Origin: Gammaproteobacteria bacterium
GTDB lineage: Bacteria; Pseudomonadota; Gammaproteobacteria; Pseudomonadales; Halieaceae
Length of the DNA stretch: 64,000 nt
Assembly: GCA_003646405.1 (NCBI GenBank)
Contig: QNFR01000002.1
Span: 4,526 to 68,525, forward strand
Direction of reading: 5' to 3'
The notes under the pieces were generated by a model. It had not been told where the DNA came from. It searched no databases and saw nothing but the letters and a program-made list of their open reading frames with translations. Below, piece by piece: positions 2,437-52,272 of this stretch. Both the position numbers and the translations under genes were made by a program. How positions within the stretch are numbered: the stretch's first letter is position 1; each line of letters opens with the position of its first letter.

Positions 2437-2868
2437 TTAATATTTCGAAAGACGTAATTCACGAAGATGATCTCGCAGGTAGTCGACTCGATCGGCGCCC
2501 CAGAAAATCTCCTCACCCACAGTGAAAGTTGGCACACCTATAATCCCCAGGGAGTCCGCCTCCAGGCGGAATTCTGCAAGCTGTTGCAGGCGCTCTGGCG
2601 CCTCCAGCGTTGCCGCTAATTCCGCCCTGTCCAGACCTACGGATGCACCCACATCCAATATGACCGACTCGTCGCCAATATCCTGGCGCACCAGTGGAAT
2701 TTTCACCTTGGCCCGCTCCGGCGGTGAACGCCCATCCCGGCCCCCCAGTGGCCGCCACACCAGGTTGACATCAAACTCGTCAAAAATACCGGGCAGTAAC
2801 TTGGACACGATGTAACAATAGGGACTGCGGAAATTAAAAAATAATTTTACATCCGTAGTGCTGCTCAT
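2437..2868 (-). CDS. DsbA-like 2-hydroxychromene-2-carboxylate isomerase family protein, unusually short (143 aa)
   Basis: Has the N-terminal FNFRSPYCY thioredoxin-fold motif and the C-terminal GVPTFTVGEEIFWGADR motif of this family. The helical insert between them seems largely absent, about 55-60 aa shorter than family members as I recall them. Confidence 0.6.
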   Translation of the reverse strand: MSSTTDVKLFFNFRSPYCYIVSKLLPGIFDEFDVNLVWRPLGGRDGRSPPERAKVKIPLVRQDIGDESVILDVGASVGLDRAELAATLEAPERLQQLAEFRLEADSLGIIGVPTFTVGEEIFWGADRVDYLRDHLRELRLSKY

Positions 2869-3065
2869 ATGCGATTATACTGATCCTTTTAATTTGCGAT
2901 AGTGCTAGTGTACTCTATAAAACGTATATTCAGGACACTGCACCAGAGATTGAGACGACATACGCCTACCCCCCTCTCTCGGGAGTGACGCACCACGAAT
3001 CGCGTGGCTCCCATCGTGTTGCACCGACATTGATGATGACTCTTTAGTTTTGTGCCGAGACAATT

Positions 3066-3830
3066 TTAGACAAACTTCATCGAAACGTCGCCCATGTCCT
3101 GGTAGCGCACAACGATAGAGTCGCCTGCCTCAACCAGTACCGCAGCGGTGAGCCCTCCAGTCATAATAAAAGTGCCCGCAGGGATTATCTCATCGCGCTC
3201 AGACAGCATTGAGGCCAGCATTGCGACACTGGCTGCCGGGTGGTCCAGAACCGCAGCACCTGCACCCAATTCGACTATTTTGCCATTATTGGTCATAACC
3301 ACGCCGCGAGTACTCCAATCGAACTCGTCTGGCTTCGCCGGTCGTCCACCAACGACGAAGCGTAACGGAAGACGAATTATCCGCCTGCACACTGGTGAGG
3401 TCAAACTTGAAGCTCTTGTAACGCGAGTCAATGATTTCCACCGCGGGAACGATCAGTTCTGTCGCATCCAACACTTCCTCCACCGTGACACTATCGCCGC
3501 GCGGAATATCAATATGGCTTGCCAGCGAGCGGGGTTTACCGGTATCCAGGCATTCCGCCTCCAGAAACTCATCGAATCGCTCATTAATCCGGTCTGCTAC
3601 CTTGTTCAGCAACACGATGCGTTCATCGACGGTCATCGCTCCCCAGGGGCCTTTCATAGCCTCACCGGCCACCCGTACCGCCGCATCAACTTCCGCTGCT
3701 CGCCTCGTGCACCCGGGCAATAATGGCGTTGTCCACGGGTGTGCGGACGTCAAAGGTTTTTCCGGAGTCACCCGTGGTGAACTCGCCATTGATAAAGTTA
3801 AGGATATTTGCAATAGCCAAAATAGTCTCT
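3066..3830 (-). pseudogene. chimeric remnant: N-terminal ~110 codons of 2-hydroxymuconic-semialdehyde dehydrogenase (dmpC-like) joined to C-terminal ~140 codons of 2-oxopent-4-enoate hydratase/4-oxalocrotonate decarboxylase family (dmpE/dmpH-like)
   Basis: The minus strand reads ..NFINGEFTTGDSGKTFDVRTPVDNAIIARVHEA, then shifts frame near 3700. It continues RAAEVDAAV..GPWGAMTVDER..RFDEFLEAECLDTGKPRSLASHIDIPRG, an ALDH N-terminus. At ~3495 this joins directly to VTVEEVLDATELIVPAVEIIDSR..ADNSS. A second frame shift lies near 3370, followed by ..NGKIVELGAGAAVLDHPAASVAMLA..GGLTAAV..VSMKFV, a hydratase C-terminus. Confidence 0.75.
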
Positions 3831-3865
3831 CCCGTTGAAGGTTTGCATCGTGGCCTGCACCCAGA

Positions 3866-5122
3866 CTAGGGCGGCATATTTGCCTCAACCGTATCCACCA
3901 GCGATTTCATTGTCAGTTTTGACTCTTTAGTTTTTTCCGATTTATCCAGGGTGACTTGCATGTCTTTAAATATGGCTATTTCTTGCGCGGAATAACCCGC
4001 TGCCGCCAGTATATCCGTGTTATTTTCGCCGTACTGGGGCGGACGGAACTGTATACCGCCAGGCGTTCTCGATAGCTTGATAGGGATGCCCGTGCCACGA
4101 TAACCCTCTGACTCCACAACCATTTGTCGCGCGATGGTCTGGGGGTGCTGTAGGGCGTCTTGCACCGTTGTGACCACCCCTACGGGAACCCCTTTCTCTA
4201 ATAGAGTTTGGGTTAGTGTGGCACCATCAAGCGTGATCAGGATGTCTTCCAGTATTTTACGCAAAGCCGCTTTGTTGCGCGCGCGGTGGGCATTGGTGGT
4301 GAATCTCGGGTCATCCGCGAGCTCCGCGCAGCCGAGTTCCCTGCACAAAAGGGCAAACTGCCTGTCGTTACCAATGGCCAAAAACAGGTGGCCGGTGGCG
4401 GTTGGCACAAGGTCGTAGGGTGTGATATTGGGGTGGGCGCTACCAGTGCGATTTTGTGGCGTGCCATCGAGGAACCAGTTCGCGGCATGTGGGTGTATCA
4501 AGCTGATGGCGGTATCGTACAGGCTCAGCTCCAGCGACTGTCCCAGCCCTGAGCTATTGCGCTCATACAATGCCAGTAAAATAGCGATTACCGCATTCAT
4601 GCCGGTGGTCAAATCCACAATCGGCACACCGATACGAACCGGTGGCCGATCGGGATCACCATTAATGCTCAGCAATCCCGAGGTAGCCTGGGCAACGGCG
4701 TCGTAACCGGGGTAACCGGCATAGGGGCCTGTGCTGCCAAAGCCTGTTATGCGGCAGTGAATTAACCGGGGAAATTTTTTTTGAAGTACGTCCTGAAAAC
4801 CAATACCCCACTTTTCCAGGGTGCCAATTTTAAAGTTTTCGACCAGGACGTCGGCATCTTCAAGCAAGCGAAATAGAATCCCGTGGGCTTCTTTCTTGCG
4901 AAGATCCAGTGCGATACCTTTTTTATTGCGGTTTACGCCATCAAAATAGGCGCTGCCACGCTCGTGGAAGGGGGGGCCCCAACCGCGGGTCTCATCACCC
5001 TGCGGAGGCTCCACTTTTATGATCCGAGCTCCGTGATCCCCCAAGATTTGCGTGCAGTACGGCCCGCTCAACACCCTTGAGAGATCAATAACCTTGATGC
5101 CAGTAAGCGACGGCCCACTCAT
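3866..5122 (-). CDS. family III CoA-transferase (CaiB/BaiF/Frc family)
   Basis: 418-aa intact ORF with the N-terminal motif GIKVIDLSRVLSGPYCTQILGDHGARIIKVEPP typical of this family. Confidence 0.85.
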   Translation of the reverse strand: MSGPSLTGIKVIDLSRVLSGPYCTQILGDHGARIIKVEPPQGDETRGWGPPFHERGSAYFDGVNRNKKGIALDLRKKEAHGILFRLLEDADVLVENFKIGTLEKWGIGFQDVLQKKFPRLIHCRITGFGSTGPYAGYPGYDAVAQATSGLLSINGDPDRPPVRIGVPIVDLTTGMNAVIAILLALYERNSSGLGQSLELSLYDTAISLIHPHAANWFLDGTPQNRTGSAHPNITPYDLVPTATGHLFLAIGNDRQFALLCRELGCAELADDPRFTTNAHRARNKAALRKILEDILITLDGATLTQTLLEKGVPVGVVTTVQDALQHPQTIARQMVVESEGYRGTGIPIKLSRTPGGIQFRPPQYGENNTDILAAAGYSAQEIAIFKDMQVTLDKSEKTKESKLTMKSLVDTVEANMPP

Positions 5123-5447
5123 TTACGGCGCGTCCCGTTCGTAGATGTCGTGTTGAAAGAAAATTCGGCGGTCCATCCGGTCATTGTCAATATCCATTTA
5201 GTAGTTGAATTCTTGGTTTCTTTATCAAGTCTATGCTCATCATCATCCCTCACCGCGTGTAAGCAAATAGCCTGTACGGTGCAGCCGCAATGCCATGACC
5301 TTCACACATTCTGTCATGCCAGATGGCGGAGGCGCAACCCGTTTGTCTGTGGATGTTAGTAACACAGGCGACCTTAGGCGTAGCCAGTGAAAAAAAGTTG
5401 ATGATATAGTGAATTTCGAGGGCAAAATAATGATGCCACGTACCTGA

Positions 5448-5900
5448 TTGGTAACGATAGGGAAGAACTCGCTTATGCTAATGGCGCTTACAGACCACCC
5501 AAATCTATCCCTCCATGTACATTTCAATCCGGCGCAGGGAAAAGTCTGGCTCGATGAGCAACGGGGAATCCTCCAGACACTCCCTGCTATCATCACTGTA
5601 TGGAATGAAATTGTTAATACACTGGGTATCGAACGATCCCGGGCACTGTTCATGCTCGCAGGCTATAAAAATGGTCAGGGCCAGGGTGATAGTGAATATC
5701 GCGTCATAGGAAAATCCCTGACAGATCGGGACAATGCGGAAGACTACAATATTTTCTCCAACTCGGATTCTTTAATCGAAACACTCTATGACTTGCAAGC
5801 TAGAGTTACCAACAGCTATTCCCGTGAAGAGAAACGTGAACAGCGTATATTTTCTACGATTGTAGGCGACACAAGGTGCCCTGTGTTTGTGCCAAAAAAC
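5448..5900 (+). pseudogene. dmpR: remnant of a DmpR/XylR-type sigma-54 enhancer-binding activator (N-terminal effector-sensing domain fragment only)
   Basis: HFNPAQGKVWLDEQRGILQTLPAIITVWNEIVNTLGIERSRALFMLAGYKNG matches the XylR/DmpR N-terminal region (F..EGKIWLGEQR....EI...LG.ER......GY.SG). A possible B-linker trace is LYDLQARVTN. No AAA+ (GETGVGKE, GAFTGA) or HTH region follows. Confidence 0.55.
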
Positions 5901-5926
5901 CAAAAATCAATCAAACAATTCCCTTA

Positions 5927-5942
5927 TGGCATGGATATTGCT
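5927..5942 (+). promoter_or_regulatory. sigma-54 (-24/-12) type promoter, Po-like, upstream of dmpK
   Basis: TGGCATGGATATTGCT has GG-N10-GC spacing. One mismatch to TGGCAC at -24 and TTGCT at -12. It ends 17 nt before the dmpK ATG. Confidence 0.5.
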
Positions 5943-5958
5943 ATATCTATAGCCTGCA

Positions 5959-6231
5959 ATGTCTTATTCACAAAAAAATATTGCCGGAATAAAAGGGCAG
6001 CGTTATGTCCGTGTAACCAAAGTGTTACACGACAAGTACGTGGAATTTGAGTTTGCGATCGGCGACCCCACGATCAATGTCGAACTGGTGTTGCCCTTCG
6101 AGCACTTCAGGAAATTCTGCGAGGACAATAACGTACAGCACCTGACTGCCGAGCAAGAAGCGGCCGTTGATTACGACAAATTGAAATGGCGATTTAGTGT
6201 ATCGGGTTGCGGTGAGAATAACGCCAACTAA
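5959..6231 (+). CDS. dmpK: phenol hydroxylase assembly subunit P0 (DmpK family), apparently intact
   Basis: 90-aa ORF. YVRVT..KYVEFEFAIGDP..VELVLPFEHFRKFC follows the DmpK-family pattern. Occupies the first position of the cluster. Confidence 0.7.
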   Translation: MSYSQKNIAGIKGQRYVRVTKVLHDKYVEFEFAIGDPTINVELVLPFEHFRKFCEDNNVQHLTAEQEAAVDYDKLKWRFSVSGCGENNAN

Positions 6232-6238
6232 CAGGCTG

Positions 6239-6266
6239 CTAGTGTACTGCGGCGGATAAAGTGCAC
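6239..6266. repeat. 28-nt repeat copy A (CTAGTGTACTGCGGCGGATAAAGTGCAC)
   Basis: 27/28 identical to 36506-36533. Contains the imperfect inverted half-sites AGTGTACT / AGTGCACT separated by 11 nt. Lies between dmpK and dmpL. Confidence 0.8.
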
Positions 6267-6290
6267 TAACATCCCCTTGCAGGAAAAGAT

Positions 6291-7289
6291 ATGAGTATCG
6301 AAATTTCAGCGAAGGCAATCACACCCATCCGTCTGTCCTATGGCAATCTGGTGGAGCGCTTTGGCGACAAGAGGCCGGCCTCGCGTTATCAAGAGGCCAC
6401 ATATGATGTGCAACCCACCGCGAATTTCCAGTATCGGCCGTTGTGGGACAAAAATTATGAGATTTACGATACCAGCCGGACCGCTATCGTCATGGAGGAC
6501 TAGTACAGCTTTGCCGATCCACGCCAGTTTTATTACGGTACTTACACCATCACTCGCGCTAAACAGCAGGAAGTCGCCGAGCATAATTACGCCTTTGTCG
6601 ACAAGCGCGACCTGCTGGACGATTTATCCGATGAGGTCAAGCAGGCTGTCCGCGATATTCTCGTTCCCCTGCGCCACGTCGAGTGGGCTGCGAACATGAA
6701 CAACTGCCAGATTGATTGCATGGGCTATGGCACCACAATTTGCTCGGTGGCCATGTTCAATGCCATAGATCGGTTGGGTATGGCCCAATATATTTCCCGT
6801 ATCGGCCTGCTTATCGATGGCAACGAAACCACCACGCTGTACGCGGTGAAAATAGACTGGATGGAAGCACCACGATGGCAAGGCCTGCGTCACGCCATAG
6901 AAGATATGCTTGTACTGGAAGACTGGTTCGAATTGATGGTTGCGCAGAATTTCGTGCTGGACGGACTGATTTTCCCCTTGCTCTGGGACCGTTTTGAAAG
7001 AAAGCTGTCGAAAGAGGGCGGAGCCACAATAGCCATGCTGACAGAATTTATGTCCGAGTGGTACAGCGAGACCATTCATTGGACGAATGCATTGGCCAAG
7101 GTCACTGCACAGGAATCCGAGGCAAACCGGCAATTGCTGACGGGCTGGCTGGACAAATGGGCAAGCAGATTGTCTGAGGCTCTGGAGCCCGTTGCGACCA
7201 AGGCCTTTGGCGCAGAAGGCGCGGCGGAGTTGGCAGAAGTCAAAGAAGAACTGCTTGCCCGCTTTGGCAAGCAGGGTTTAACTGTTTAG
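6291..7289 (+). pseudogene. dmpL: phenol hydroxylase P1 subunit (DmpL-like) with one in-frame TAG
   Basis: A single frame runs 6291-7289, broken only by TAG at 6501-6503 (..AIVMED*YSFADPRQFYYG..), where homologs have Trp. Similarity to DmpL spans the full length (LRHVEWAANMNN, DRLGMAQYISRIGLL, MLTEFM..WY). Confidence 0.8.
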
Positions 7290-7302
7290 CCGGGAGATAA
7301 AC

Positions 7303-7533
7303 ATGACAGGCAAAAAAAACACCCCGTCTCTAATTTTTCAGGACAATCCAGGGGTCAATATCCAGTATCAATCCGGCATGGTGCGGCTCGAGCGCGCCGG
7401 TAGCCTTACTGTAAAGCGTGAGACAGTCGAGGAGAACCTGGGTCGCGAATGGGATGTACAGGAAATGCACCTGGTACTTATATCGCTGGCGGGAAACATT
7501 GATAAAGATGATGACAAGTTCGAACTGAGTTGA
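7303..7533 (+). CDS. dmpM: phenol hydroxylase regulatory component P2 (MmoB/DmpM family), short form
   Basis: 76-aa ORF with the RETVEENLGREWDVQEM and DKDDDKF motifs. The N-terminal part looks ~13 aa shorter than the CF600 protein as I recall it (unverified). Confidence 0.6.
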   Translation: MTGKKNTPSLIFQDNPGVNIQYQSGMVRLERAGSLTVKRETVEENLGREWDVQEMHLVLISLAGNIDKDDDKFELS

Positions 7534-7571
7534 GGTTAACACTTGACAAGCGGATCGATGAGGGTATCGGA

Positions 7572-8095
7572 ATGGCGGCCAAAAAATTAAATTTACGTAA
7601 ACGATATGAACTGCTAACCCGGGGCGTGGGCTGGGAAACAACTTACCAGAAAATGGATGACGTTTTCCCCTATGACACGCTCGAAGGCTTCAAGATTACC
7701 GACTGGGACAAGTGGGAAGATCCGTTCCGCCTGACCATGGATACCTACTGGAAATTCCAGGCGGAGAAAGAAAAAAATCTGTACGCGATTATTGACAGTT
7801 TTTGCAAAATAATGGCCAGACCAACCTGGCGGACGCCAGCTACCTGAGTGCGATAAAACTGTTCCTTACCGGCGTTACACCACTCGAGTATGGCGCGCAT
7901 AAGGGGTTTGCCTACCTGGGCCGTCATTTCAGGGGAGAAGGCGCGAGGGTCGCCTGCCAGATGCAGGCGATCGATGAACTGCGTCATGCCCAAACACAAA
8001 TACACACTATCAGCCATTACAACAAACACTTTAACGGGCTGCATGACCCCTTCTACCAGTTTGACCGGGTCTGGTATCTGTCCGTACCAAAATCA
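7572..8095 (+). pseudogene. dmpN: phenol hydroxylase large oxygenase subunit P3 (DmpN-like), frameshifted and 3'-truncated
   Basis: ATG 7572 follows GAGGG. Reads KKLNL..ITDWDKWEDPFRLTMDTYWKFQAEKEK, then changes frame in the TTTTGCAAAA run (7800-7809). Continues QNNGQ..LEY..ARVACQMQAIDELRH (diiron ligand motif)..DRVWYLSVPKS and then loses homology, at about residue 230 of a ~515-aa protein. Confidence 0.8.
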
Positions 8096-8147
8096 TTAAT
8101 TCGGTTCAAGACTCCGGGGCTCAATGGCGTCAAGGCACAAGGATGTA

Positions 8148-9218
8148 ATGATGAGTTTTGAAGTAACCATAGAGCCACTGGGCGTCACCATAGAGGTGGA
8201 GGAAGACCAGACTATCCTGGATGCGGCATTGCGACAGGGCGTGTATTTGCCGCACGCCTGTGGCCACGGCCTCTGTGGTACATGCAAAGTCGACGTTCTC
8301 GAAGGGGATATTGAAATAGGCGATGAAGCATCACCCTTTGCCCTGATGGATTTTGAGCGTGACGAAGGAAAATGCCTGACCTGTTGCAGCACACCATCAA
8401 GTGACCTGGTGATTGAGGCCGATGTCGAGGAAGAGCCCGATGCCGAAAACATTCCGGTCCGGGATTACACCGGCACAGTGGTTAAGCTGGAAAAACTAAC
8501 CCCCAGGATTCTGGGTGTTTTCCTGGAACTTGACGGCGATGGCCTGGAATTTCAATCGGGACAATATGCAAATCTGCATATCCCCGGACTCGATACACCC
8601 AGGCCTTTCTCTATGGCACAGTCACCCAATGAGAAAAATATTATCGAATTTGACATCACTCTGATCGAAGGCGGCGAAGGTACGACCTGGATTCACAAAA
8701 ACCTGAAGGTGGGAGATAAACTGGAATTCTCTGCTCCCTATGGGCATTTTTTCATTCGGGTATCCGACACAAAACCGGTACTTTTTTTCGCCGGGGGCTC
8801 GGGGTTATCCAGTCCGAAATCGATGATTCTGGATTTACTTGAAAGCAGAGACAAGCGGGAAATCATCTTGTTTCATGGCGCCAGAAACCTCAAGGAACTC
8901 TACTACAAGGACCTGTTTTGGTAGTTGGAGCGCCAGCACGACAACTTTACTTATGTCTCAGGCTTGTCCGGCCCGGATATAGAAGAGGACTGGGACGGCG
9001 GCACCGGTTTTGTGCACGATGTCGCTATCGATCATTTTTCCGGTAAGTTCGAGGATTACCGGGCCTATATGTGTGGTCCCCCACTGATGATCGATGCCTG
9101 TATCACCGCCTTGATGCGCGGTCGTGTATTTGAAAAAGACATGTTTATGGAAAAATTCTTTACTGCCGCCGATGGCGCTGCTGAAAAGAAGAGAAGCCCC
9201 TTGTTCAAGAATATCTAG
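8148..9218 (+). pseudogene. dmpP: phenol hydroxylase reductase P5 (DmpP-like, 2Fe-2S/FAD/NAD) with one in-frame TAG
   Basis: AAGGA RBS at 8139. Reads MSFEVTIEPLG.., CGHGLCGTCK (plant-type 2Fe-2S), RPFSMA, GGSGLSSP. TAG at 8922-8924 is followed in the same frame by ..HDNFTYV..YMCGPPLMIDA..FTAADGA..LFKNI. Confidence 0.85.
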
Positions 9219-9224
9219 CGCACT

Positions 9225-9569
9225 GTGTCGTCACACACTATCACCATTACCGACTCGGGAGAGGAGTACCGCTGCAAGGAAACACAACATCTTCTCGCGG
9301 GCATGATACAGTTGGGTAAAAAAGGCATTCCCGTGGGCTGCCGAGGTGGTGATTGTGGTGTTTGCAAAGTCAGAATTTTGCGTGGTTTGTACCAATCCAG
9401 CAAGATGAGCCGAGATCGTGTGACGGAGCAGGAGGAAAAGGCCGGAACAGTATTGGCATGCAGGGTGTTCCCGCGCTCCGATATTCGTTTGCAGGTAGTG
9501 GACCATCTCCATAAGGCGATAACAGTGGCAGATGATGGTTTTTTAGCACCGGTAAATCAGGAGAAGTAA
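9225..9569 (+). CDS. dmpQ: XylT/DmpQ-type [2Fe-2S] ferredoxin, apparently intact
   Basis: 114 aa with the motif [35 protein letters not shown] start with a weak RBS. Confidence 0.7.
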
Positions 9570-9570
9570 C

Positions 9571-9768
9571 ATGGCTATGACAGGTGTTTTGCGACCCGGA
9601 CACGTTCAGTTGCGTGTTCTCGATATGGAAGAATCCCTGGAGCATTATTGTAACAACATGGGATTGATAGAAACCGACCGCGATGATCAGGGGCGCGTGT
9701 ATTTAAAGTGCTGGGATGAACAGGATAAGTTTTCCGTCGTGCTGGAACCGTCTTGTCGCGCGGGATAA
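9571..9768 (+). pseudogene. dmpB: N-terminal ~60-codon stub of catechol 2,3-dioxygenase (XylE/DmpB)
   Basis: [54 protein letters not shown] matches the start of extradiol dioxygenases of ~307 aa. Homology stops near 9755 and a stop follows. AGGAG RBS is present. Confidence 0.85.
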
Positions 9769-9790: not shown

Positions 9791-10024
9791 CTACCTGAAC
9801 CAGTGGTCCAACTCGTCACCACCAAGTTCCTGCACAGCGTACTCGTTGAATTGTCGATAAACATTCCAATCATGAATTTTTTGAGCTGCCGACTCCGCAA
9901 GGTTTTCGTCCTGTAACTGTGCCTGGTATTTGTTGACCATTACATCGCTGTAATCATTACACTGGCCAAGAAAGGCAATGATAATGGATTTTTTTTCGAC
10001 CAGGGATATCGTACGTTGAGTCAT
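9791..10024 (-). CDS. hypothetical protein (77 aa)
   Basis: ORF only, with no domain I recognise. Sits at the right border of the eroded dmp island, divergent from ubiX. Confidence 0.35.
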   Translation of the reverse strand: MTQRTISLVEKKSIIIAFLGQCNDYSDVMVNKYQAQLQDENLAESAAQKIHDWNVYRQFNEYAVQELGGDELDHWFR

Positions 10025-10707: not shown

Positions 10708-10733
10708 ATGTTAAGCAGACGCCTGCTTAACAT
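10708..10733. repeat. perfect palindrome ATGTTAAGCAG-ACGC-CTGCTTAACAT (11-bp stem, 4-nt loop)
   Basis: Read directly from the sequence. It begins with the ATG of the 63-aa ORF, so ORFs on both strands start MLSRRLLNI. Confidence 0.9.
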
Positions 10734-10899
10734 ATCCGCACTGGTCGCTCCATCGCACGCATTTCAGTTGGTGCTCAAGGGCACACAGGATGTACCGCTG
10801 CTGGTGTTTTCTGATGGCAAAGCGGTGAACTCACAAAACTTCATTGCCTATGTCAGGGATGACGTCACCGGCACTGAACTGGACATTGGCCAACACTAG
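10708..10899 (+). CDS. small hypothetical protein (63 aa), possible signal peptide
   Basis: Strong RBS TAAGGAGGG at 10696-10704, 3 nt before the ATG. The N-terminus [20 protein letters not shown] is signal-peptide-like. The 3' end overlaps the trhO stop by 4 nt (convergent). Confidence 0.45.
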
Positions 10900-41447: not shown

Positions 41448-44288
41448 ATGCGAACCATCATGCGTACCCTGGCGATATTCTATATTGTCTATCTCGCCAT
41501 CGTTGTCCTGGTTATCACGCCGGCCCTCAATTTCCTGCCCTCGCGGATTGTACAGCAGACTTTTGGCAGGCAGTTGCACACCGAGATGGTGCTGTTCAAC
41601 CCCTTCACACTCGCCCTGGAGGTCCGCCAGGCGGAACTACCGGAGCTCGGGGGCGAGCGCTTCTTCGCGGTGGATAAGGCCGTCGTCAACCTGTCGTTGG
41701 AGAGTCTGTGGGCAGAAGGCTGGGTATTGGACGAGGTAAAGGTTCAGGGACTTTACGTCCACGTCATACGCCTGCCTGAGGACAAGTTCAATTTCTCGGA
41801 TATGATCAGCGACGAGCCGGATGAACCTGCCGCCGAAGATACCGGTGGCGGCATTCCCGGCCTGACCATACATGACTTCGATTTCCAGTCGCAGACAATA
41901 ATAATCACAGACGAGTCCCGGGAGACGCCCTACAGCACCCACTGGGACGGCCTGGCCATTCGTGTTCTGGATCTGTCTACAGTCCTTGAGGAAGGCAGGC
42001 CTTACAGCATCGATGTCTATGGTGAAGCCGGTGGGAGCCTGCACTGGAAGGGTGAAATATCCGTCCCCAATGCCTACAGCAAGGGTCACCTGGTGTTGAA
42101 AAACCTGGATCTTACTACTGGGTGGCGCTTCGCTGAACCGTGGGTTCAATTCGAGTTGAAGAACGGCCGCCTCAACGCCGAGGCCCGGTATCAGTTGGAT
42201 TGGAATGACGCATTCACCTATGGACTCACCGACGCCCGTTTAAATTTGTCTGCGATCGACATAGCGCCAAAAACAACTGTAGAGTTGCGCGATACCGCAC
42301 TGGAACTGCAGGGTTTCACTATCGGTGGGGTCACAGTGGACAGCAAGGCGCAACACGCCACCATCGATTCGGTCACCGTGGACGGTCTGGCATTGGCCGG
42401 CTGGAGTGAAGGCGCCAGAGTCAGCCTGGCGGAACTGTTCGCTGTGAAAACCTCCGCTGATCCAGCCGGGCAAGAGGAGGAAGAACCAAAACCCACAGCA
42501 CAAGAGGAAGATAGTGACAGTGGCTGGACAGCCGAAATCAAAACTACCCGCTTACAGAACAGCAGCCTGCGCTGGCGCTCTGAATTTACCGACCCTCCTG
42601 TGCTGGAGGTGGCCCCCTTTGAAGCCACTGTTGATGACGTTACATGGCCTCTGTCCGGCGACAGTCCGCTGTCCCTGAACATTGTGGCGAACCAGCAGGC
42701 AAAAATCGCCATTGACGGTGTCCTGGCACTGGCCAATGGCGACGGCAGCATCGGTTATAAACTGGAGGGGCTGCCGCTGATCTGGTTCAACCCCAACCTG
42801 CCAACCGCGCTCAAGGCGCAGTTGACCGGAGGCCAGGTGCAGGTCGACGGGGAAGTGGCGCTGGCTGGCTACGCACCCACCACGGTGCACCTCAGCGGTG
42901 CGGTCACTGACTTTTCCGGCAAGATGGAAGAAGAGGAAACCTCCCTTACCAGCTGGGATTCGGTGCGCTGGGAAGTGCTCGAAATCAACCTTGAGCAGCA
43001 CAGCGTCGCCATGAAAAAATTGTCGATCCACAAATTCTCCGGCCGCATACACATTGCGGAGGATGGCTCCATCAACGCCCAGAACATATGGCGGGAAGAA
43101 GTGGGTGAAAGAGCGGCGGAAATTGCCGAGGATTTGTCCCTGGACAAGCCCTGGACCGTCAGCATTCCGGGCATATTTATCACCGACAGTGCTGTCGATT
43201 TTATGGACCAGTCACTGCCTATTAATTTTCGCACAGTAATCGGCGATCTCAACGGTGAAGTGCTCGGCATCGCCACGGAGCCGGGGACAGTGGCAACAGT
43301 GGATATAAAAGGCTCGGTGGACGGCTACGCGCCAGTGGCACTGAAGGGTAGCGCCCAGGCTTTCAGCACGCCGCCCGCGCTGGACCTGAGCCTCACCTTC
43401 GACGGCGTCGACCTGGCCCTGCTAACACCCTACTCCAGCACCTATGCCGGTTATGCCATCGATCGCGGTTTGCTCACCCTGCATTTGCAGTATGCGTTGC
43501 AGAATAATCAACTGGTGGGCGACAACAGGGTGCTGATCGACCAGTTAAAGCTGGGCGATAAAGTCGACAGTGACCAGGCCGCTGATATCCCGTTGAAGCT
43601 GGGTCTGGCATTGCTGACTGACGCCAACGGCGTTATCGACTTGCAAGTACCGGTAAGCGGTAATGTCGATGATCCACAATTCAATGTGGGCAGCGTTATA
43701 TTCAAAGCCTTTGTCAACATCCTGACCAAGGCCGTGACGGCGCCTTTCAGCCTGTTGGCCAACCTGGTAGGCAGCGAAGAAGACCTGCAACGCATGACTT
43801 TCGCCTCAGGCTCGGCGCAACTGGATGAAGCGAGCAAAGCCAAACTGGGTCAGCTCACCAGCGCTCTCACCCAGCGCCCGGAACTGACGGTGGTACTCAC
43901 CGGCCGCCTCAATATCCCCGCCGATCGAGAAAGTCTGCAAAAAGTCACCCTGCAAGAGCAACTGGTAGCGGGGGGGTTGCCCCCGGAAGAACTCGACAGC
44001 AAGGGTCCCGCATGGGAAAAGGCTATCGGGGCGCGCTACGAGTCACTGCCGGCCAGTAGCGGACAATCTGCCGATTTGTCTTCGCATGAAATGTACCAGC
44101 AGGTGGCACAAAACATCGAGGTAAGCGACACCCGCATGATGGATTTGGCGCAGCAGCGCGCTGTCGCCGTGAAAGGTTATCTGGTCAACGAGGCACAGCT
44201 GCCCGCCGACCGGGCAGTGGTCGAAAAAGCCGACCTGGACGACAAGGCCAATATGTTCAGCGGCGTTGAACTGGGTATGGAAAACTAA
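41448..44288 (+). CDS. DUF748-type large periplasmic/envelope protein (AsmA-like)
   Basis: 946 aa. A single N-terminal TM anchor, then long beta-rich repeats. The N-terminal region resembles DUF748 proteins. Confidence 0.65.
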   Translation: MRTIMRTLAIFYIVYLAIVVLVITPALNFLPSRIVQQTFGRQLHTEMVLFNPFTLALEVRQAELPELGGERFFAVDKAVVNLSLESLWAEGWVLDEVKVQGLYVHVIRLPEDKFNFSDMISDEPDEPAAEDTGGGIPGLTIHDFDFQSQTIIITDESRETPYSTHWDGLAIRVLDLSTVLEEGRPYSIDVYGEAGGSLHWKGEISVPNAYSKGHLVLKNLDLTTGWRFAEPWVQFELKNGRLNAEARYQLDWNDAFTYGLTDARLNLSAIDIAPKTTVELRDTALELQGFTIGGVTVDSKAQHATIDSVTVDGLALAGWSEGARVSLAELFAVKTSADPAGQEEEEPKPTAQEEDSDSGWTAEIKTTRLQNSSLRWRSEFTDPPVLEVAPFEATVDDVTWPLSGDSPLSLNIVANQQAKIAIDGVLALANGDGSIGYKLEGLPLIWFNPNLPTALKAQLTGGQVQVDGEVALAGYAPTTVHLSGAVTDFSGKMEEEETSLTSWDSVRWEVLEINLEQHSVAMKKLSIHKFSGRIHIAEDGSINAQNIWREEVGERAAEIAEDLSLDKPWTVSIPGIFITDSAVDFMDQSLPINFRTVIGDLNGEVLGIATEPGTVATVDIKGSVDGYAPVALKGSAQAFSTPPALDLSLTFDGVDLALLTPYSSTYAGYAIDRGLLTLHLQYALQNNQLVGDNRVLIDQLKLGDKVDSDQAADIPLKLGLALLTDANGVIDLQVPVSGNVDDPQFNVGSVIFKAFVNILTKAVTAPFSLLANLVGSEEDLQRMTFASGSAQLDEASKAKLGQLTSALTQRPELTVVLTGRLNIPADRESLQKVTLQEQLVAGGLPPEELDSKGPAWEKAIGARYESLPASSGQSADLSSHEMYQQVAQNIEVSDTRMMDLAQQRAVAVKGYLVNEAQLPADRAVVEKADLDDKANMFSGVELGMEN

Positions 44289-48138: not shown

Positions 48139-49204
48139 TTGCGCGCTTATTTAATCGTCGCCCTGTTCCTGCTATTGATATTTGGTAGCATATTCGGCTA
48201 CCTCTTCAAGCAGTCCGCCGGTCGGGCCGGGCAGGCCTTCACCCCACCTCCGATCACAATTGCGGCGACCACGGCACATACCGAGACCTGGCCGTCGCAG
48301 CTGGACGCTGTAGGCACGATCCGCGCGACCCGGGGCGCGGAACTAAGCGCGGAAACCAGCGGTGAGATCATCGCTATCCGTGTGCCCTCCGGCGCGGAGG
48401 TCCAGGCCGGACAGCTGTTGCTAACCCTCAACGACAGCGTGGAACAGGCCAGTCGCAAGCGGCAAGAGGCCAATCTGATTGGCCCGATTGTTGTACAAAA
48501 GGGACGCCAGCCTGGTAAAAAAGAAATCCATTCCACAGAGTCAGTACGACCGTTCCCAGGCCAACCTGGACAGCGCGATCGCACAACTGGCGGAGACAGA
48601 AGCCCGTCTCGCCAACAAGCGCATCGTCGCTCCTTTCAAGGGAACCGTTGGCATCATTCAAGTGAAGGTCGGCGATTACATTGAATCCGGCACACCGATC
48701 ACAACGCTACAGGACCTCGGTGAGTTGGAGATCGATTTTGCCGTTCCCGCCAGGCACTTCCCGCAGCTGCGCAAGGGTCTGAGTATCGCCGTGTACACAG
48801 CCGCCTTCCCCGGGCGGGAGTTCCGCGCCACCCTGCGGGCACTGGACGCCAGGGTCGACGCGAACACACGCAACCTCATGTTGCGAGCCACTATGGACGA
48901 CAGTGACGGCCTGCTCCCGGGCATGTTCGCCCGATTGATCGTAGATCTGGGCAACCCGATAACGATGGTCGCCGTACCGGAGACCGCAGTCTCCTACTCG
49001 CTACACGGCAATATTATATATGTTATACAAGAGAGCGACGGTGAGTTACAGGTGCAACCACGCGTGGTGCAAACTGGTGATTCCCGGGGCGGGAAGATCG
49101 CCATCATTGACGGCTTGCACGGCGGCGAACGAGTCGTCACCGCGGGGCAAAACAAACTGCGCCGCGGTGCCCGCGTTGTCATCGACGAGTCGGTGAAGTT
49201 CTAG
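48139..49204 (+). pseudogene. RND efflux periplasmic adaptor (MFP), single frameshift near 48478
   Basis: TTG start after AAGGAGG. The N-terminal part in frame 1 runs to ..QASRKRQEANL. The remainder, ARLLYKRDASLVKKKSI..VAPFKGTVG.. to the stop at 49204, is in frame 2, and each frame hits stops beyond the junction. Confidence 0.75.
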
Positions 49205-52200
49205 TGTCATTCACCGACACATTTATCAAGCGCCCGGTGCTGGCCCTGGTAGTCAGCAGCCTGTTACTGCTGCTGGGCTGCGCGTCCCTGTTTCGGGTAA
49301 GCCTGCGCGAATTCCCGGAGCTGGAACGCAGCGTCATCTACGTTGATACAACCTACCGCGGAGCCAGTGGGCGCACCGTACAGGGTTTTGTGACCACCCC
49401 CCTGCAAATCAGTATCGCCGGAGCCCGGGGCATCGAATACATGACCTCCGACAGCAACCCCGGCAAGTCCAGCATCGAGGTCCATGTGCGGCTGGGAGAG
49501 GACACCAGCGCCGTATTGTCTGAAGTCATCGCCAAGGTCAATCAGGCCAGGGGAGACCTCCCCCGGGAGATCAACGACCCGGTCATAAGAACCGCCACCG
49601 GCGCTGATGCCATGATGTACCTGGGCTTCTTCAGCGACCAGATGACGCCCTACCAGATCACCGATTACCTGATGCGCACGGTGCAACCGGAACTCGCCAC
49701 CCTGGAGGGCGTCGGCAGTGTCAGTATTTTCGGCCACCACCTGGCCATGCGAATCTGGCTGGACCCGGTGCGTATGGCGGCTTTTGGTGTTACCGCCACG
49801 GACATCAGTGCCGCCGTACGGCGGGACAATTACATCGCTACCGCGGGTTCGACAGAGGGGGCCCTGGTGCAATCCACGGTGGATGCTCGTACCGATATGC
49901 AGTTCCCCGAGGAATTCAAAAACCTGGTGGTACGCCAGGTCGGGGAAAAACGTGTGCGCCTCGGCGATGTGGCAGAGGTAGCACTGGCCGCTGAAAGTAC
50001 CCAGATCAAAGCCCTGTCCAGCGGACACGAGACCGTATTCATGTCTATCACACCGACACCGGATGCCAACCCACTGGAAGTATCCAAGGCGGTTCACGAC
50101 GCGATGCCAGTCATTAAGTCCGTCCTGCCCGCCGACATGGAGGTATTGATGGACTGGGATAGCAGCACCGTTATCGATGCGGCGCTGAAGGAAGTCGTCA
50201 CCACCCTGCTGGAAGCGGCTCTGATTGTCATCCTGGTTATCTACCTGTTCCTGGGGTCTCTGCGCGTCGTGTTAATACCCCTGATCGTTATTCCCCTGTC
50301 ACTGATCGGTGTGGTTTTTCTGATCCTGGTGATGGGTTTCTCCCTCAACCTGCTGACCCTGCTGGCCATGGTGATCGCCATCGGGCTGGTGGTAGACGAT
50401 GCCATCGTGGTGGTAGAGAACGTGCACAGGCATATAGAGCACGGCGCCTCACCGCGCGCAGCTGCACTGCTCGGCGCCCGTGAGGTCGCCCTGCCGGTCG
50501 TGACCATGACACTGACCTTGGCCGCGGTCTACGCCCCCATTGCCTTTATCGGCGGGCTGACCGGCGCCCTGTTCAGCGAGTTCGCTCTGACCCTGGCCGG
50601 TGCTGTGGTCGTCTCGGGCATTGTCGCCCTGACCCTCAGCCCCATGATGTGCTCCCGGGTCTTAAAAGACAGTGAACACCAGGGCCGCTTCGCGAACTGG
50701 CTCGATACGCGCTTCGAGTTTTTGATTAATCGCTACCGAAGGCTGCTGTCGGCCTGCCTGGCTAATCGGGGGGCAGTGCTGCTGTTCGCGGCCTGCATTC
50801 TCGCCAGCCTGCCACTACTGTTCTCTCTGGGCCAGCAGGAATTGGCGCCGGAGGAAGATACCGGAGGGCTCTATGTCACCGGCACCTCGCCGCGCTATGC
50901 CAACCTCGACTACAACGATTACTTCCTCAAGGAGGTGTTGCAGATATGGAAAGATATTCCTGAATTCAGCCATTCCTGGCAAGTGATCTGGCCCCATCTT
51001 AACCTTGGCGGCATAAACATGGTCCCCTGGGATGAACGGCAGCGCAGCCAGCAACAGGTCCAGGCGGAATTCCAGCAAAAATTAGGCCGCGTGGCCGGGA
51101 TGGAATTGTTCACCTTTGGCATCCCGTCCCTGCCGGGGTCGGATGCTGGCCTTCCGGTAAATTTTGTGGTCGCCTCTACCGCAGACTATGAGGAAGTCAT
51201 GCGTGTTGGCGACGAGTTGCTGCAGGCCGCCCGCGAATCGGGCCTGTTCACTTTCGTCACCCAGACTCTGGACTTCAACCGACCGGAAACAGCCGTCAAT
51301 ATCGACCGGGAACGGGCCGCGCGCCTGGGCATTTCCATGCGGGACATTGGCGAGACACTATCGATCATGCTCGGTGAGGACGAGCTGAACCGCTTTAACC
51401 TGGAGGGACGCAGCTACAAGGTTATCCCCCAGGCCGGACGCGGTTTTCGCCTGACCAGGCAGGAGCTGGAAAAATACTACCTGCGCACGGCCAGTGATGA
51501 ACTGGTACCCCTGTCTGCGGTTATTTCGCTGGAATTGCGCGTGGAACCCAACGAACTGGCCCAGTACCAGCAACTCAACAGCACCACCATCAAGGGCATC
51601 ATGGCGCCGCCAAACAGTCTCGGCACCGGGCTGGCATTCCTACGTGACAAGTTGTATGAAATCGCGCCAACAGGGTTCCGCGAAGGCTACACCGGTGGCT
51701 CGCGGCGCTTCGTCCAGGAATCCGCTTCCTTTCCGGTACTATTCGGCCTGTCGCTGATTCTCATCTTTCTGGTGTTGTCCGCGCAGTACAACAGTTTCCG
51801 GGACCCACTGGTGGTACTGGTTTCCGTGCCGCTGTCCGTGTTCGGGGCGATGGTACCTATTGCCCTGGGTTTCGCCACTATCAATATCTATACCCAGGTG
51901 GGTCTGTTAACCCTGATCGGCCTGATCAGCAAGCACGGCATCCTGATCGTGGATTTCGCCAATCAGTTGACCCGGGAGGGAATGGATCGCAAGGCGGCGG
52001 TATTGCAGGCGGCAACCCTGCGGCTGCGCCCCATTCTGATGACGACTTTCGCCACTGTACTGGGGGTCTGGCCACTGGTCGTCGCCACCGGCGCCGGCGC
52101 CAACAGCCGCTACAGTATCGGCCTGATGATCACCACCGGCATGCTGGTTGGCACCCTGTTTACGCTGTTCGTACTGCCTACGCTATACCTGCCCTTCAGC

Positions 52201-52272
52201 GCGCGGGCCAGACGTAAGACCACGGCAGCTGAGCAAGCGCTAACAGCCCATGTGGCGAACCCCCCTAACTAG
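49204..52272 (+). CDS. RND efflux transporter permease (AcrB/MexB family)
   Basis: 1022 aa, 12-TM architecture, conserved VVDDAIVVVEN motif. The GTG start overlaps the adaptor stop (TAGTG). Confidence 0.9.
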   Translation: MSFTDTFIKRPVLALVVSSLLLLLGCASLFRVSLREFPELERSVIYVDTTYRGASGRTVQGFVTTPLQISIAGARGIEYMTSDSNPGKSSIEVHVRLGEDTSAVLSEVIAKVNQARGDLPREINDPVIRTATGADAMMYLGFFSDQMTPYQITDYLMRTVQPELATLEGVGSVSIFGHHLAMRIWLDPVRMAAFGVTATDISAAVRRDNYIATAGSTEGALVQSTVDARTDMQFPEEFKNLVVRQVGEKRVRLGDVAEVALAAESTQIKALSSGHETVFMSITPTPDANPLEVSKAVHDAMPVIKSVLPADMEVLMDWDSSTVIDAALKEVVTTLLEAALIVILVIYLFLGSLRVVLIPLIVIPLSLIGVVFLILVMGFSLNLLTLLAMVIAIGLVVDDAIVVVENVHRHIEHGASPRAAALLGAREVALPVVTMTLTLAAVYAPIAFIGGLTGALFSEFALTLAGAVVVSGIVALTLSPMMCSRVLKDSEHQGRFANWLDTRFEFLINRYRRLLSACLANRGAVLLFAACILASLPLLFSLGQQELAPEEDTGGLYVTGTSPRYANLDYNDYFLKEVLQIWKDIPEFSHSWQVIWPHLNLGGINMVPWDERQRSQQQVQAEFQQKLGRVAGMELFTFGIPSLPGSDAGLPVNFVVASTADYEEVMRVGDELLQAARESGLFTFVTQTLDFNRPETAVNIDRERAARLGISMRDIGETLSIMLGEDELNRFNLEGRSYKVIPQAGRGFRLTRQELEKYYLRTASDELVPLSAVISLELRVEPNELAQYQQLNSTTIKGIMAPPNSLGTGLAFLRDKLYEIAPTGFREGYTGGSRRFVQESASFPVLFGLSLILIFLVLSAQYNSFRDPLVVLVSVPLSVFGAMVPIALGFATINIYTQVGLLTLIGLISKHGILIVDFANQLTREGMDRKAAVLQAATLRLRPILMTTFATVLGVWPLVVATGAGANSRYSIGLMITTGMLVGTLFTLFVLPTLYLPFSARARRKTTAAEQALTAHVANPPN

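Follow-up and report, generated by a model that had tools for sequence, protein, structure and literature searches.

The stretch analysed here, referred to as the window, is a 64-kb (64,000-nucleotide) segment from a gammaproteobacterium of the family Halieaceae, and all coordinates refer to it. From position 2437 to 9768 its reading frames are short and broken, as seen in the open reading frame (ORF) listing and in three-frame translation; the ORF listing of the other 54 kb holds dense, long frames. Relics of a dmp-type phenol hydroxylase and catechol meta-cleavage locus occupy 5475-9768 on the forward strand in the order dmpR'-sigma54 promoter-dmpK-L-M-N'-('O)-P-Q-B', with the remains of further catabolic genes to their left on the reverse strand. 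Family identity was assigned by profile searches (Pfam, NCBIfam/TIGR) and by comparison with PDB chains, and about 20 lesions were placed against comparison loci from other assemblies, designated by L-numbers (L006, L012, L017, L021 and L038). The original prediction, made from the letters of the window, described an eroded dmp-type island lost through mixed lesion types, and base-level comparison with intact relatives supports it. The fragments lie in the canonical order and at the places given for them, and the profile and PDB matches show the dmp-family similarity that was anticipated. The extent first proposed, 3066-9768, does contain the island; the eroded stretch begins further left, at 2437, and includes a DsbA-like gene.

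Intact relatives and known systems

A search with the reconstructed DmpL retrieved intact proteins at 95%, 89% and 88% identity. Four loci carry intact clusters, namely L006 (Logan SRR35213545), L009 (a Tara scaffold), L010 (ENA ERZ6864591) and L012 (JGI 3300060873), whereas the window has the full lesion set. L006, an uncultured marine cluster laid out as K90-L332-M92-N508-O119-P355-Q-B306, aligns with the window at 88-91% nucleotide identity over 5896-8096 and 8090-9752, two blocks with a 1343-bp gap between them. At the protein level it is 95% identical in DmpL, 94-96% in DmpN' and 91% in DmpP, and it has the same 49-50% GC content and a conserved promoter. L009, L010 and L012 contain dmpR, an alpha/beta-hydrolase gene and KLMNOPQ, and the latter two go on with B and an HbpS-like gene. 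The alpha/beta-hydrolase gene found between dmpR and dmpK in these three loci is missing from the window. The nearest named organism with such a cluster is a Cycloclasticus sp. metagenome-assembled genome (MAG), whose DmpL is 77% identical.

The dmp operon of Pseudomonas sp. CF600 (dmpR; dmpKLMNOP; dmpQBCDEFGHI) is built from the same families in the same K-L-M-N-O-P-Q-B order and, like the window, has a sigma54 (-24/-12) promoter before dmpK and an activator of the DmpR/XylR type. The window differs from it in that the lower-pathway relic lies on the opposite strand with a CoA-transferase gene in between, and in that the locus is non-functional. The regulatory gene also differs in arrangement: dmpR of CF600 is divergent from its operon, while in the window, L009, L010 and L012 it lies upstream in the same orientation. 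The nearest intact relatives also depart from CF600 in the order of their lower-pathway genes, B-C-D-E-H-F-G.

Phenol hydroxylase genes

The first structural gene, dmpK (5959-6231; PF06099), is intact with 90 codons and is 88% identical to DmpK of L006 over its full length. In the spacer between it and dmpL an extra 38 bp have been inserted (6227-6264, forward strand), which the alignment shows to be missing from all four intact relatives. The insertion has ACTAAC repeats on its flanks and a possible hairpin with an 8-bp stem, TAGTGTAC...GTGCACTA; a footprint and a small repeat element are both conceivable origins.

The dmpL frame (6291-7289) has its full length of 332 codons, matches 229 of the 230 positions of PF02332 and is 95.5% identical to L006 DmpL. 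Its codon 71 (6501-6503) reads TAG in place of the TGG present in the four relatives, so that a single G>A change has removed an invariant Trp. dmpM (7303-7533) matches PF02406 (MmoB_DmpM) at positions 20-84 of 85 and is open, yet damaged twice over. An in-frame deletion of 42 bp (14 codons) after 7344 lies between two CAGGACAA repeats, and a TGG>TGA change at codon 91 (7531-7533) ends the frame 2 codons early.

Of dmpN, codons 1-177 of 508 are left, fused to the end of dmpO (7572-8131). The remnant matches PF02332 at positions 1-157 of 230. A 1-bp deletion lies near 7803. At 8096 a stretch of 1343 bp flanked by AAATCAT repeats has been lost, so that DmpN residue 177 now runs straight into the DmpO tail. 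By tblastn the surviving part of dmpO corresponds to residues 101-114, its last 14 to 15 codons, at 8090-8131, and another 1-bp deletion lies beside it near 8133. The first diiron motif of DmpN, ELRH, is retained and the second, ESRH (residue 231 in L006), is deleted. The frameshift foreseen in dmpN is real; the loss amounts to two thirds of the length rather than a C-terminal half, and dmpO, thought to be absent, survives as this terminal piece.

The reductase gene dmpP (8151-9218) is full length at 355 codons, with Fer2, FAD_binding_6 and NAD_binding_1 domains and 91% identity to L006 DmpP. It carries an in-frame TAG at codon 258 (8922-8924), where the relatives have GGG, GAA, GAG or CAG. 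Both single in-frame TAG codons announced for dmpL and dmpP are accordingly present.

The type of the cluster follows from structural matches. DmpL and DmpN' match PHL (2INN_C) and PHN (2INN_A, residues 6-177) of the Pseudomonas sp. OX1 phenol hydroxylase (PDB 2INN/2INP/3U52) at 4.6e-101 and 3.9e-80, respectively. Toluene and methane monooxygenases score far lower, which identifies the cluster as phenol-hydroxylase-type. In terms of ancestry the operon is of the multicomponent dmp type (group 1 soluble diiron), and K, L, M, N, O and P, its six components, are all represented in order, O by 14 codons. A functional enzyme takes an alpha subunit with both E...E-x-x-H diiron motifs, together with undamaged beta and gamma subunits; here DmpN ends at residue 177 and has lost half of its diiron ligands, DmpL and DmpP are interrupted by TAG and DmpO is missing. 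The window locus cannot yield a phenol hydroxylase.

Regulator relic and orphan promoter

Upstream of the structural genes, dmpR' (5475-5876) joins residues 1-70 of a DmpR/XylR-type activator in frame to residues 171-234, with boundaries taken from tblastn with the dmpR of L012. It matches XylR_N (Pfam) and the MobR model at positions 12-68, and against the CapR/DmpR structure 6IY8 it aligns in two pieces, 4-82 and 164-222. At the DNA level, 5372-5689 corresponds to 6370-6685 of L012 and 5679-5869 to 6981-7165, with an 11-nt overlap at the junction that encodes GQGD on both sides. Two deletions have removed the effector pocket, the AAA+ domain and the helix-turn-helix (HTH), and the reduction of dmpR to part of its sensing domain was correctly recognised at the outset. 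Within the retained part, at 5690-5700, the last zinc-ligand Cys of the sensor domain is replaced by Tyr (SEYRVIGK); the same stretch reads SECRIIGK in L012, DKCRVIGK in 6IY8 and EHCRIIGK in MopR. The replacement is one more degenerative substitution.

A sigma54 (-24/-12) promoter motif, TGGCATGGATATTGCT, lies at 5927-5942 on the forward strand. It is the sole match to the motif in the 64 kb, with 0.29 expected by chance, and the same position is occupied in the four intact relatives. Homology to the promoter region of L006 begins near 5879, so only about 47 nt ahead of the -24 element are kept. The alpha/beta-hydrolase gene and the upstream activating region that would lie between dmpR' and the promoter are gone. 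A regulatory unit of this kind combines a sigma54 promoter, a DmpR/XylR-type activator with V4R sensor, AAA+ and HTH domains, and upstream activating sequences; only the promoter core is present. Sigma54 promoters depend strictly on an enhancer-binding activator. Given this dependence and the loss of both the dmpR domains and the upstream activating region, the orphan promoter is predicted to be silent.

Catechol cleavage and the lower pathway

The ferredoxin gene dmpQ (9225-9569, forward strand) is open with 114 codons, matches Fer2 at 7e-16, retains the Cys-x4-Cys-x2-Cys motif and is 85% identical to its L006 counterpart. At its start there is a 9-bp gap relative to L006. Since L010, L012 and L009 share this gap, the difference is probably an insertion in L006 and not a lesion of the window. 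On the window branch dmpQ has 9 nonsynonymous and 0 synonymous substitutions. The catechol 2,3-dioxygenase gene that follows, dmpB' (9571-9768, forward strand), is reduced to about 64 of 306 codons. It matches TIGR03211 at positions 1-60 of 303 and residues 1-65 of L006 DmpB at 92% identity, with homology ending near 9764, in agreement with the stop after some 60 codons that had been called.

The lower pathway is represented on the reverse strand by two fused fragments. The first, dmpC' (2-hydroxymuconic semialdehyde dehydrogenase; 3496-3820), consists of the first 106 to 110 codons or so, matching TIGR03216 at positions 2-103 of 481. A 2-bp deletion near 3700 places the segments corresponding to residues 5-37 and 39-106 of L021 dmpC in different frames. 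The second, 'dmpH (2-oxo-3-hexenedioate / 4-oxalocrotonate decarboxylase; 3066-3498), consists of the C-terminal 143 codons, approximately residues 122-264, and carries a +1 insertion near 3363-3367; by tblastn it is 83-86% identical to L021 dmpH in two frames. The earlier description of an inverted dmpC'-'dmpE chimera holds for the orientation and for dmpC'. Its second part is dmpH, as TIGR03218 scores 204.8 bits compared with 94.4 bits for the paralog dmpE.

DNA alignment places the dmpC'-'dmpH junction at a GCGGC microhomology, with about 3.1 kb gone between dmpC codon ~107 and dmpH codon ~121. A dmpC gene expected after dmpB in L006 is not there, and the relic was compared with L020-L022 and L038 instead. 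In L021 and L022, the nearest intact relatives of 'dmpH (81-83% amino acid identity), the order is B-C-D-E-H-F-G. To arrive at the present relic, four events are needed, namely the 2-bp deletion, the ~3.1-kb deletion, the +1 insertion and a loss of dmpF and dmpG downstream. No trace of dmpD, E, F or G was detected in the window by tblastn; dmpI was not searched with a reference sequence. A full pathway of this type (dmpQBCDEFGHI / xylTEGFJQKIH) has genes for an extradiol dioxygenase, HMS dehydrogenase and hydrolase, hydratase, aldolase and dehydrogenase, decarboxylase and tautomerase. Of the meta-cleavage genes in the window only Q is intact, B being reduced to 64 of 306 codons, C to codons 1-106 and H to 122-264, and the locus belongs to the catechol meta-cleavage family by descent only.

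Beyond dmpH, also on the reverse strand, lies a gene of the DsbA-like, 2-hydroxychromene-2-carboxylate-isomerase type (2437-2868). It is open, but about 54 codons have been deleted from it in frame. The Pfam DSBA profile matches in two stretches, better at positions 116-190 of 191. In L038 a 205-residue ortholog follows dmpH after 63 nt, and the window copy lacks the segment 'MARITRK...AQGKD' of that protein. A tblastn search with 28 reference proteins found no further relics in the gaps 2869-3065 and 5123-5371 and no second copies of dmp genes in the window.

The CoA-transferase gene and its surroundings

Between the two dmp segments lies a family III CoA-transferase gene on the reverse strand (3866-5122), with a full-length match to PF02515 at 6e-121 and an open frame of 418 codons. 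Its homologs have 397-400 residues, those from metagenomes being 86-87% identical and those of Cycloclasticus and Neptuniibacter 76-81%. The excess length stems from a 7-bp deletion near 3932 that removed the natural stop codon and added a tail of 21 residues. In L017 the gene belongs to a polycyclic aromatic hydrocarbon (PAH)-type cluster, between the subunits of a ring-hydroxylating dioxygenase and a SnoaL/LEH gene, and in L019 its operon reads thiolase-CoAT-HMGL. A stub of the SnoaL/LEH-like gene, some 10 codons long (3887-3916, reverse strand), now lies inside the CoA-transferase ORF, which reads on through the spacer into it; the stub has the sequence LTMKSLVDTV in the window and MTMKSNVDTV in L017 and L018, and its homology ends near 3887.

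Survival of this frame raises the possibility that selection has kept the CoA-transferase, and perhaps dmpK and dmpQ, the first as a working orphan with its 21-residue tail. The full-length Pfam match agrees with this, as does the low chance, roughly estimated at ~0.08 for ~2 small lesions per kb, that the ~1.2 kb of the gene would stay undisrupted among its neighbours. The ratio of nonsynonymous to synonymous substitutions (N/S) on the window branch (N28/S56, 0.50) also matches that of the intact L017 branch (N30/S64, 0.47). Set against this, the dmp pseudogenes likewise lack a significant N/S shift, so the comparison has low power; the gene has already lost its own stop codon; and its operon partners in relatives, the ring-hydroxylating dioxygenase and SnoaL genes or the thiolase and HMGL genes, are all gone here. 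For dmpQ, the 9 to 0 excess of nonsynonymous changes noted above speaks against constraint. Retention by selection is a possibility worth keeping in mind, albeit a doubtful one.

A 15-nt exact direct repeat, TGACTCTTTAGTTTT, occurs at 3037-3051 and 3920-3934, and its copies bracket the dmpC'-'dmpH relic. If one mismatch and one gap are allowed, the repeat reaches about 21 nt. An exact 15-mer repeat within 13 kb arose in 6 of 200 shuffles (3%). Within the right copy falls the site of the 7-bp deletion by which the CoA-transferase lost its stop codon. A reading of the pair as a target-site or extended duplication finds no support in the flanks, which do not align beyond ~21 nt.

Authenticity of the lesions

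The window comes from a short-read MAG, and strain heterogeneity is recorded for the MAGs of this family in the sample concerned (PMC6258724 supplement), so the stops, frameshifts and deletions might in principle be sequencing, assembly or binning artefacts that conceal intact genes. An exact-sequence look-up of the CoA-transferase retrieved five more contigs (ENA ERZ27227323, assembled with MEGAHIT; Logan SRR6478866 and SRR6478915; JGI 3300033151 and 3300013101), which BLASTN aligns to the window without gaps at 99.98-100% identity over 6-15 kb. A sixth contig comes from a second MAG of JGI 3300013101; it includes dmpM to dmpB' and agrees with the window at 99.96% over 21 kb, likewise without a gap. 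Each extra contig differs by 0-9 mismatches over these 6-21 kb, the single-nucleotide polymorphisms are scattered, and no indel occurs in any of the six, which excludes the sequencing errors on which the original prediction would have foundered. The lesions agree across five samples, three assembly pipelines (ENA/MEGAHIT, Logan and JGI) and at least four read sets, and every one of them is fixed in all sampled strains. Read errors, moreover, do not typically produce large microhomology-flanked deletions or remove whole genes. An artefact is therefore extremely improbable; the lesions are disabling relative to intact orthologs and are real features of the genome.

Equally remote is the idea that the genes work through recoding, by TAG read-through, programmed frameshifting or split subunits. 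It draws on the fact that both stops within long genes are TAG, in dmpL and dmpP frames that are otherwise full length and 91-95% identical to their relatives. The TAG in dmpL, though, replaces the invariant Trp by one base change. Nor can recoding restore what is absent from the DNA: DmpN residues 178-508 with the second E-x-x-H motif, DmpO (14 residues left), the AAA+ and HTH domains of DmpR, the catechol 2,3-dioxygenase beyond codon 64, or dmpD, E, F and G.

Host and foreign origin

JGI sample 3300013101 corresponds to Guay4, core 4569_4, 0-3 cm, from the Guaymas Basin, and has yielded the Halieaceae MAGs B26_G4 and B35_G4 (PMC6258724); the window would belong to one of these two. Its valyl-tRNA synthetase (ValRS) is 81% identical to that of Halieaceae bacterium GM1-29 and 79% to that of a Halioglobus MAG. 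Halieaceae relatives with 79-91% identity in ValRS share the gene order rhodanese-bolA-...-pepA-holC-valS and have different genes to the left of rhodanese. No copy of the same backbone with an intact island or an intermediate stage was encountered, only strains 99.96-100% identical to the window and distant Halieaceae that lack the segment.

The region is richer in AT than its surroundings, as had been judged by eye, with 50.4% GC in 5959-9768 versus 57.5% in 10100-64000. AT-biased decay was considered as the source of the low GC and rejected, as the intact relatives have the same composition and the mutation counts are alike on both branches (GC>AT against AT>GC, 48/29 on one and 48/27 on the other). 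Since those relatives are themselves at 49-50% GC, the AT-richness is inherited and a sign of foreign origin. Genes with TraG_N and KfrA_N domains occur within a few kb of the intact cluster in L010 (18031-19596) and L012 (18431-19450), a setting that suggests spread of such clusters by conjugative elements or plasmids. Composition, absence from related Halieaceae and the TraG/KfrA neighbours of the relatives together point to acquisition from outside the lineage.

The window itself bears few marks of a mobile island. The gene and Pfam table holds no integrase or transposase within ~10 kb, in keeping with the lack of flanking mobility genes reported at first, and no tRNA gene lies nearby. Of the integrase or transposase, tRNA target and att repeats that would define such an island none is found, and the 15-nt pair is the only notable repeat.

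Mode and age of the decay

Over the whole relic the damage comprises six or more deletions, ranging in size from 42 bp to over 3 kb, at least five indels of 1-7 bp, three nonsense substitutions and one 38-bp insertion; the dmpK-B' segment alone has at least ten lesions. Five deletion junctions carry microhomology or direct repeats of 5-11 bp, among them CAGGACAA in dmpM, AAATCAT in dmpN/O, the 11-nt GQGD overlap in dmpR and GCGGC in dmpC/H. Such short repeats at junctions are typical of slippage or illegitimate recombination. The decay is dominated by indels. Chance survival accounts reasonably for the small genes, as had been proposed: dmpK and dmpQ together (618 bp) would escape with a probability of ~0.27 at ~2 small lesions per kb, a rough estimate. 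All three small genes singled out, dmpK, dmpM and dmpQ, are indeed open, with the qualification that dmpM has lost 14 codons and ends early.

The proposed history starts from three modules. The first would have been a dmpR-regulated, sigma54-driven six-component phenol hydroxylase with its ferredoxin and catechol 2,3-dioxygenase (dmpR-KLMNOPQ-B). The second would have been a meta-cleavage lower pathway, dmpC-D-E-H-F-G followed by the DsbA-like gene, and the third a piece of a PAH-type cluster with the CoA-transferase followed by the SnoaL-like gene. Selection for the pathway would then have lapsed, and all three would have collapsed by deletion-biased decay that was probably neutral.

Several observations weigh against so simple an account. 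With substitutions polarised by L010, L009 and L012 as outgroups, the dmp genes show N46/S41 (1.12) on the window branch and N41/S47 (0.87) on that of L006 (Fisher p=0.45), and the two branches are of equal length, 87 and 88 substitutions. Long neutral decay is not visible in the substitutions. The ratio of lesions to substitutions lies above that of a simple neutral model, on small counts. The CoA-transferase is open with an N/S equal to that of its intact homolog, which leaves room for continued use of part of the region. A further phenol hydroxylase, intact, might exist elsewhere in the genome, beyond the 64-kb window. From the lack of an N/S shift and the equal branch lengths, the decay appears to be recent relative to the ~9% divergence from L006.

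The same figures could mean that the loss was fast and possibly selected, either as a burst of microhomology-mediated deletions or through selection against a partial pathway that makes toxic catechols. At least ten lesions have accumulated in dmpK-B' without an excess of substitutions, and each is fixed in all sampled strains. Yet one inactivating hit, such as the loss of dmpR, would have sufficed for any benefit, and further hits fit neutral decay. The counts are small, the relative-rate comparison takes both lineages to evolve equally fast, and bacterial pseudogenes as a rule show a deletional bias. Rapid loss is thus unlikely, and the same low standing is given to its fuller form, an unusually fast dismantling by a deletion burst or positive selection in which the CoA-transferase was kept as an orphan with a new C-terminal tail.

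Ordinary decay remains the preferred explanation. With high confidence, 2437-9768 can be regarded as the non-functional remains of three horizontally acquired aromatic-catabolism modules that were lost through common deletion-biased erosion. Deletion-biased pseudogene decay in bacteria was reportedly described by Mira, Ochman and Moran in 2001. The relic shows the same mix of nonsense changes, small indels and microhomology deletions, the same net loss of DNA and the same chance sparing of short genes, and it does not differ in principle from that general pattern. That acquired operons decay into pseudogenes is textbook knowledge, and no new mechanism or family is revealed here.

Other features of the window

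Two ORFs without a Pfam match flank ubiX, one of 77 residues at 9791-10024 on the reverse strand and one of 63 residues at 10708-10899 on the forward strand; both are called as genes in every contig that covers them. ARAGORN reports a tRNA-Tyr (anticodon ATA) at 42723-42806 on the forward strand, inside a 946-residue DUF748 ORF (41448-44288), which is very probably a false positive. At 48139-49204 on the forward strand a membrane-fusion gene of the RND/HlyD type appears to be split over two overlapping frames, with Biotin_lipoyl_2 in 48139-48684 and HlyD_D23 (positions 93-214 of 214) in 48479-49204. Directly downstream follows an ORF of 1022 residues (49204-52272), presumably the AcrB-like pump partner, and the split gene is probably a frameshifted gene outside the island.

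Implications

What sets this relic apart from other decaying loci is the availability of an intact template at ~90% identity together with repeated independent samplings of the decayed allele, by which each lesion and each junction microhomology can be typed. A Halieaceae population at the oxic surface of the hydrocarbon-rich Guaymas sediment appears to have given up an acquired aerobic route for phenol and catechol. Gene callers nevertheless reported 'Phenol_Hydrox', 'MmoB_DmpM', 'Fer2/FAD' and 'Aldedh' genes at the relic. Since such callers annotate its fragments as genes, marker-gene surveys could count a capacity for phenol degradation that does not exist.

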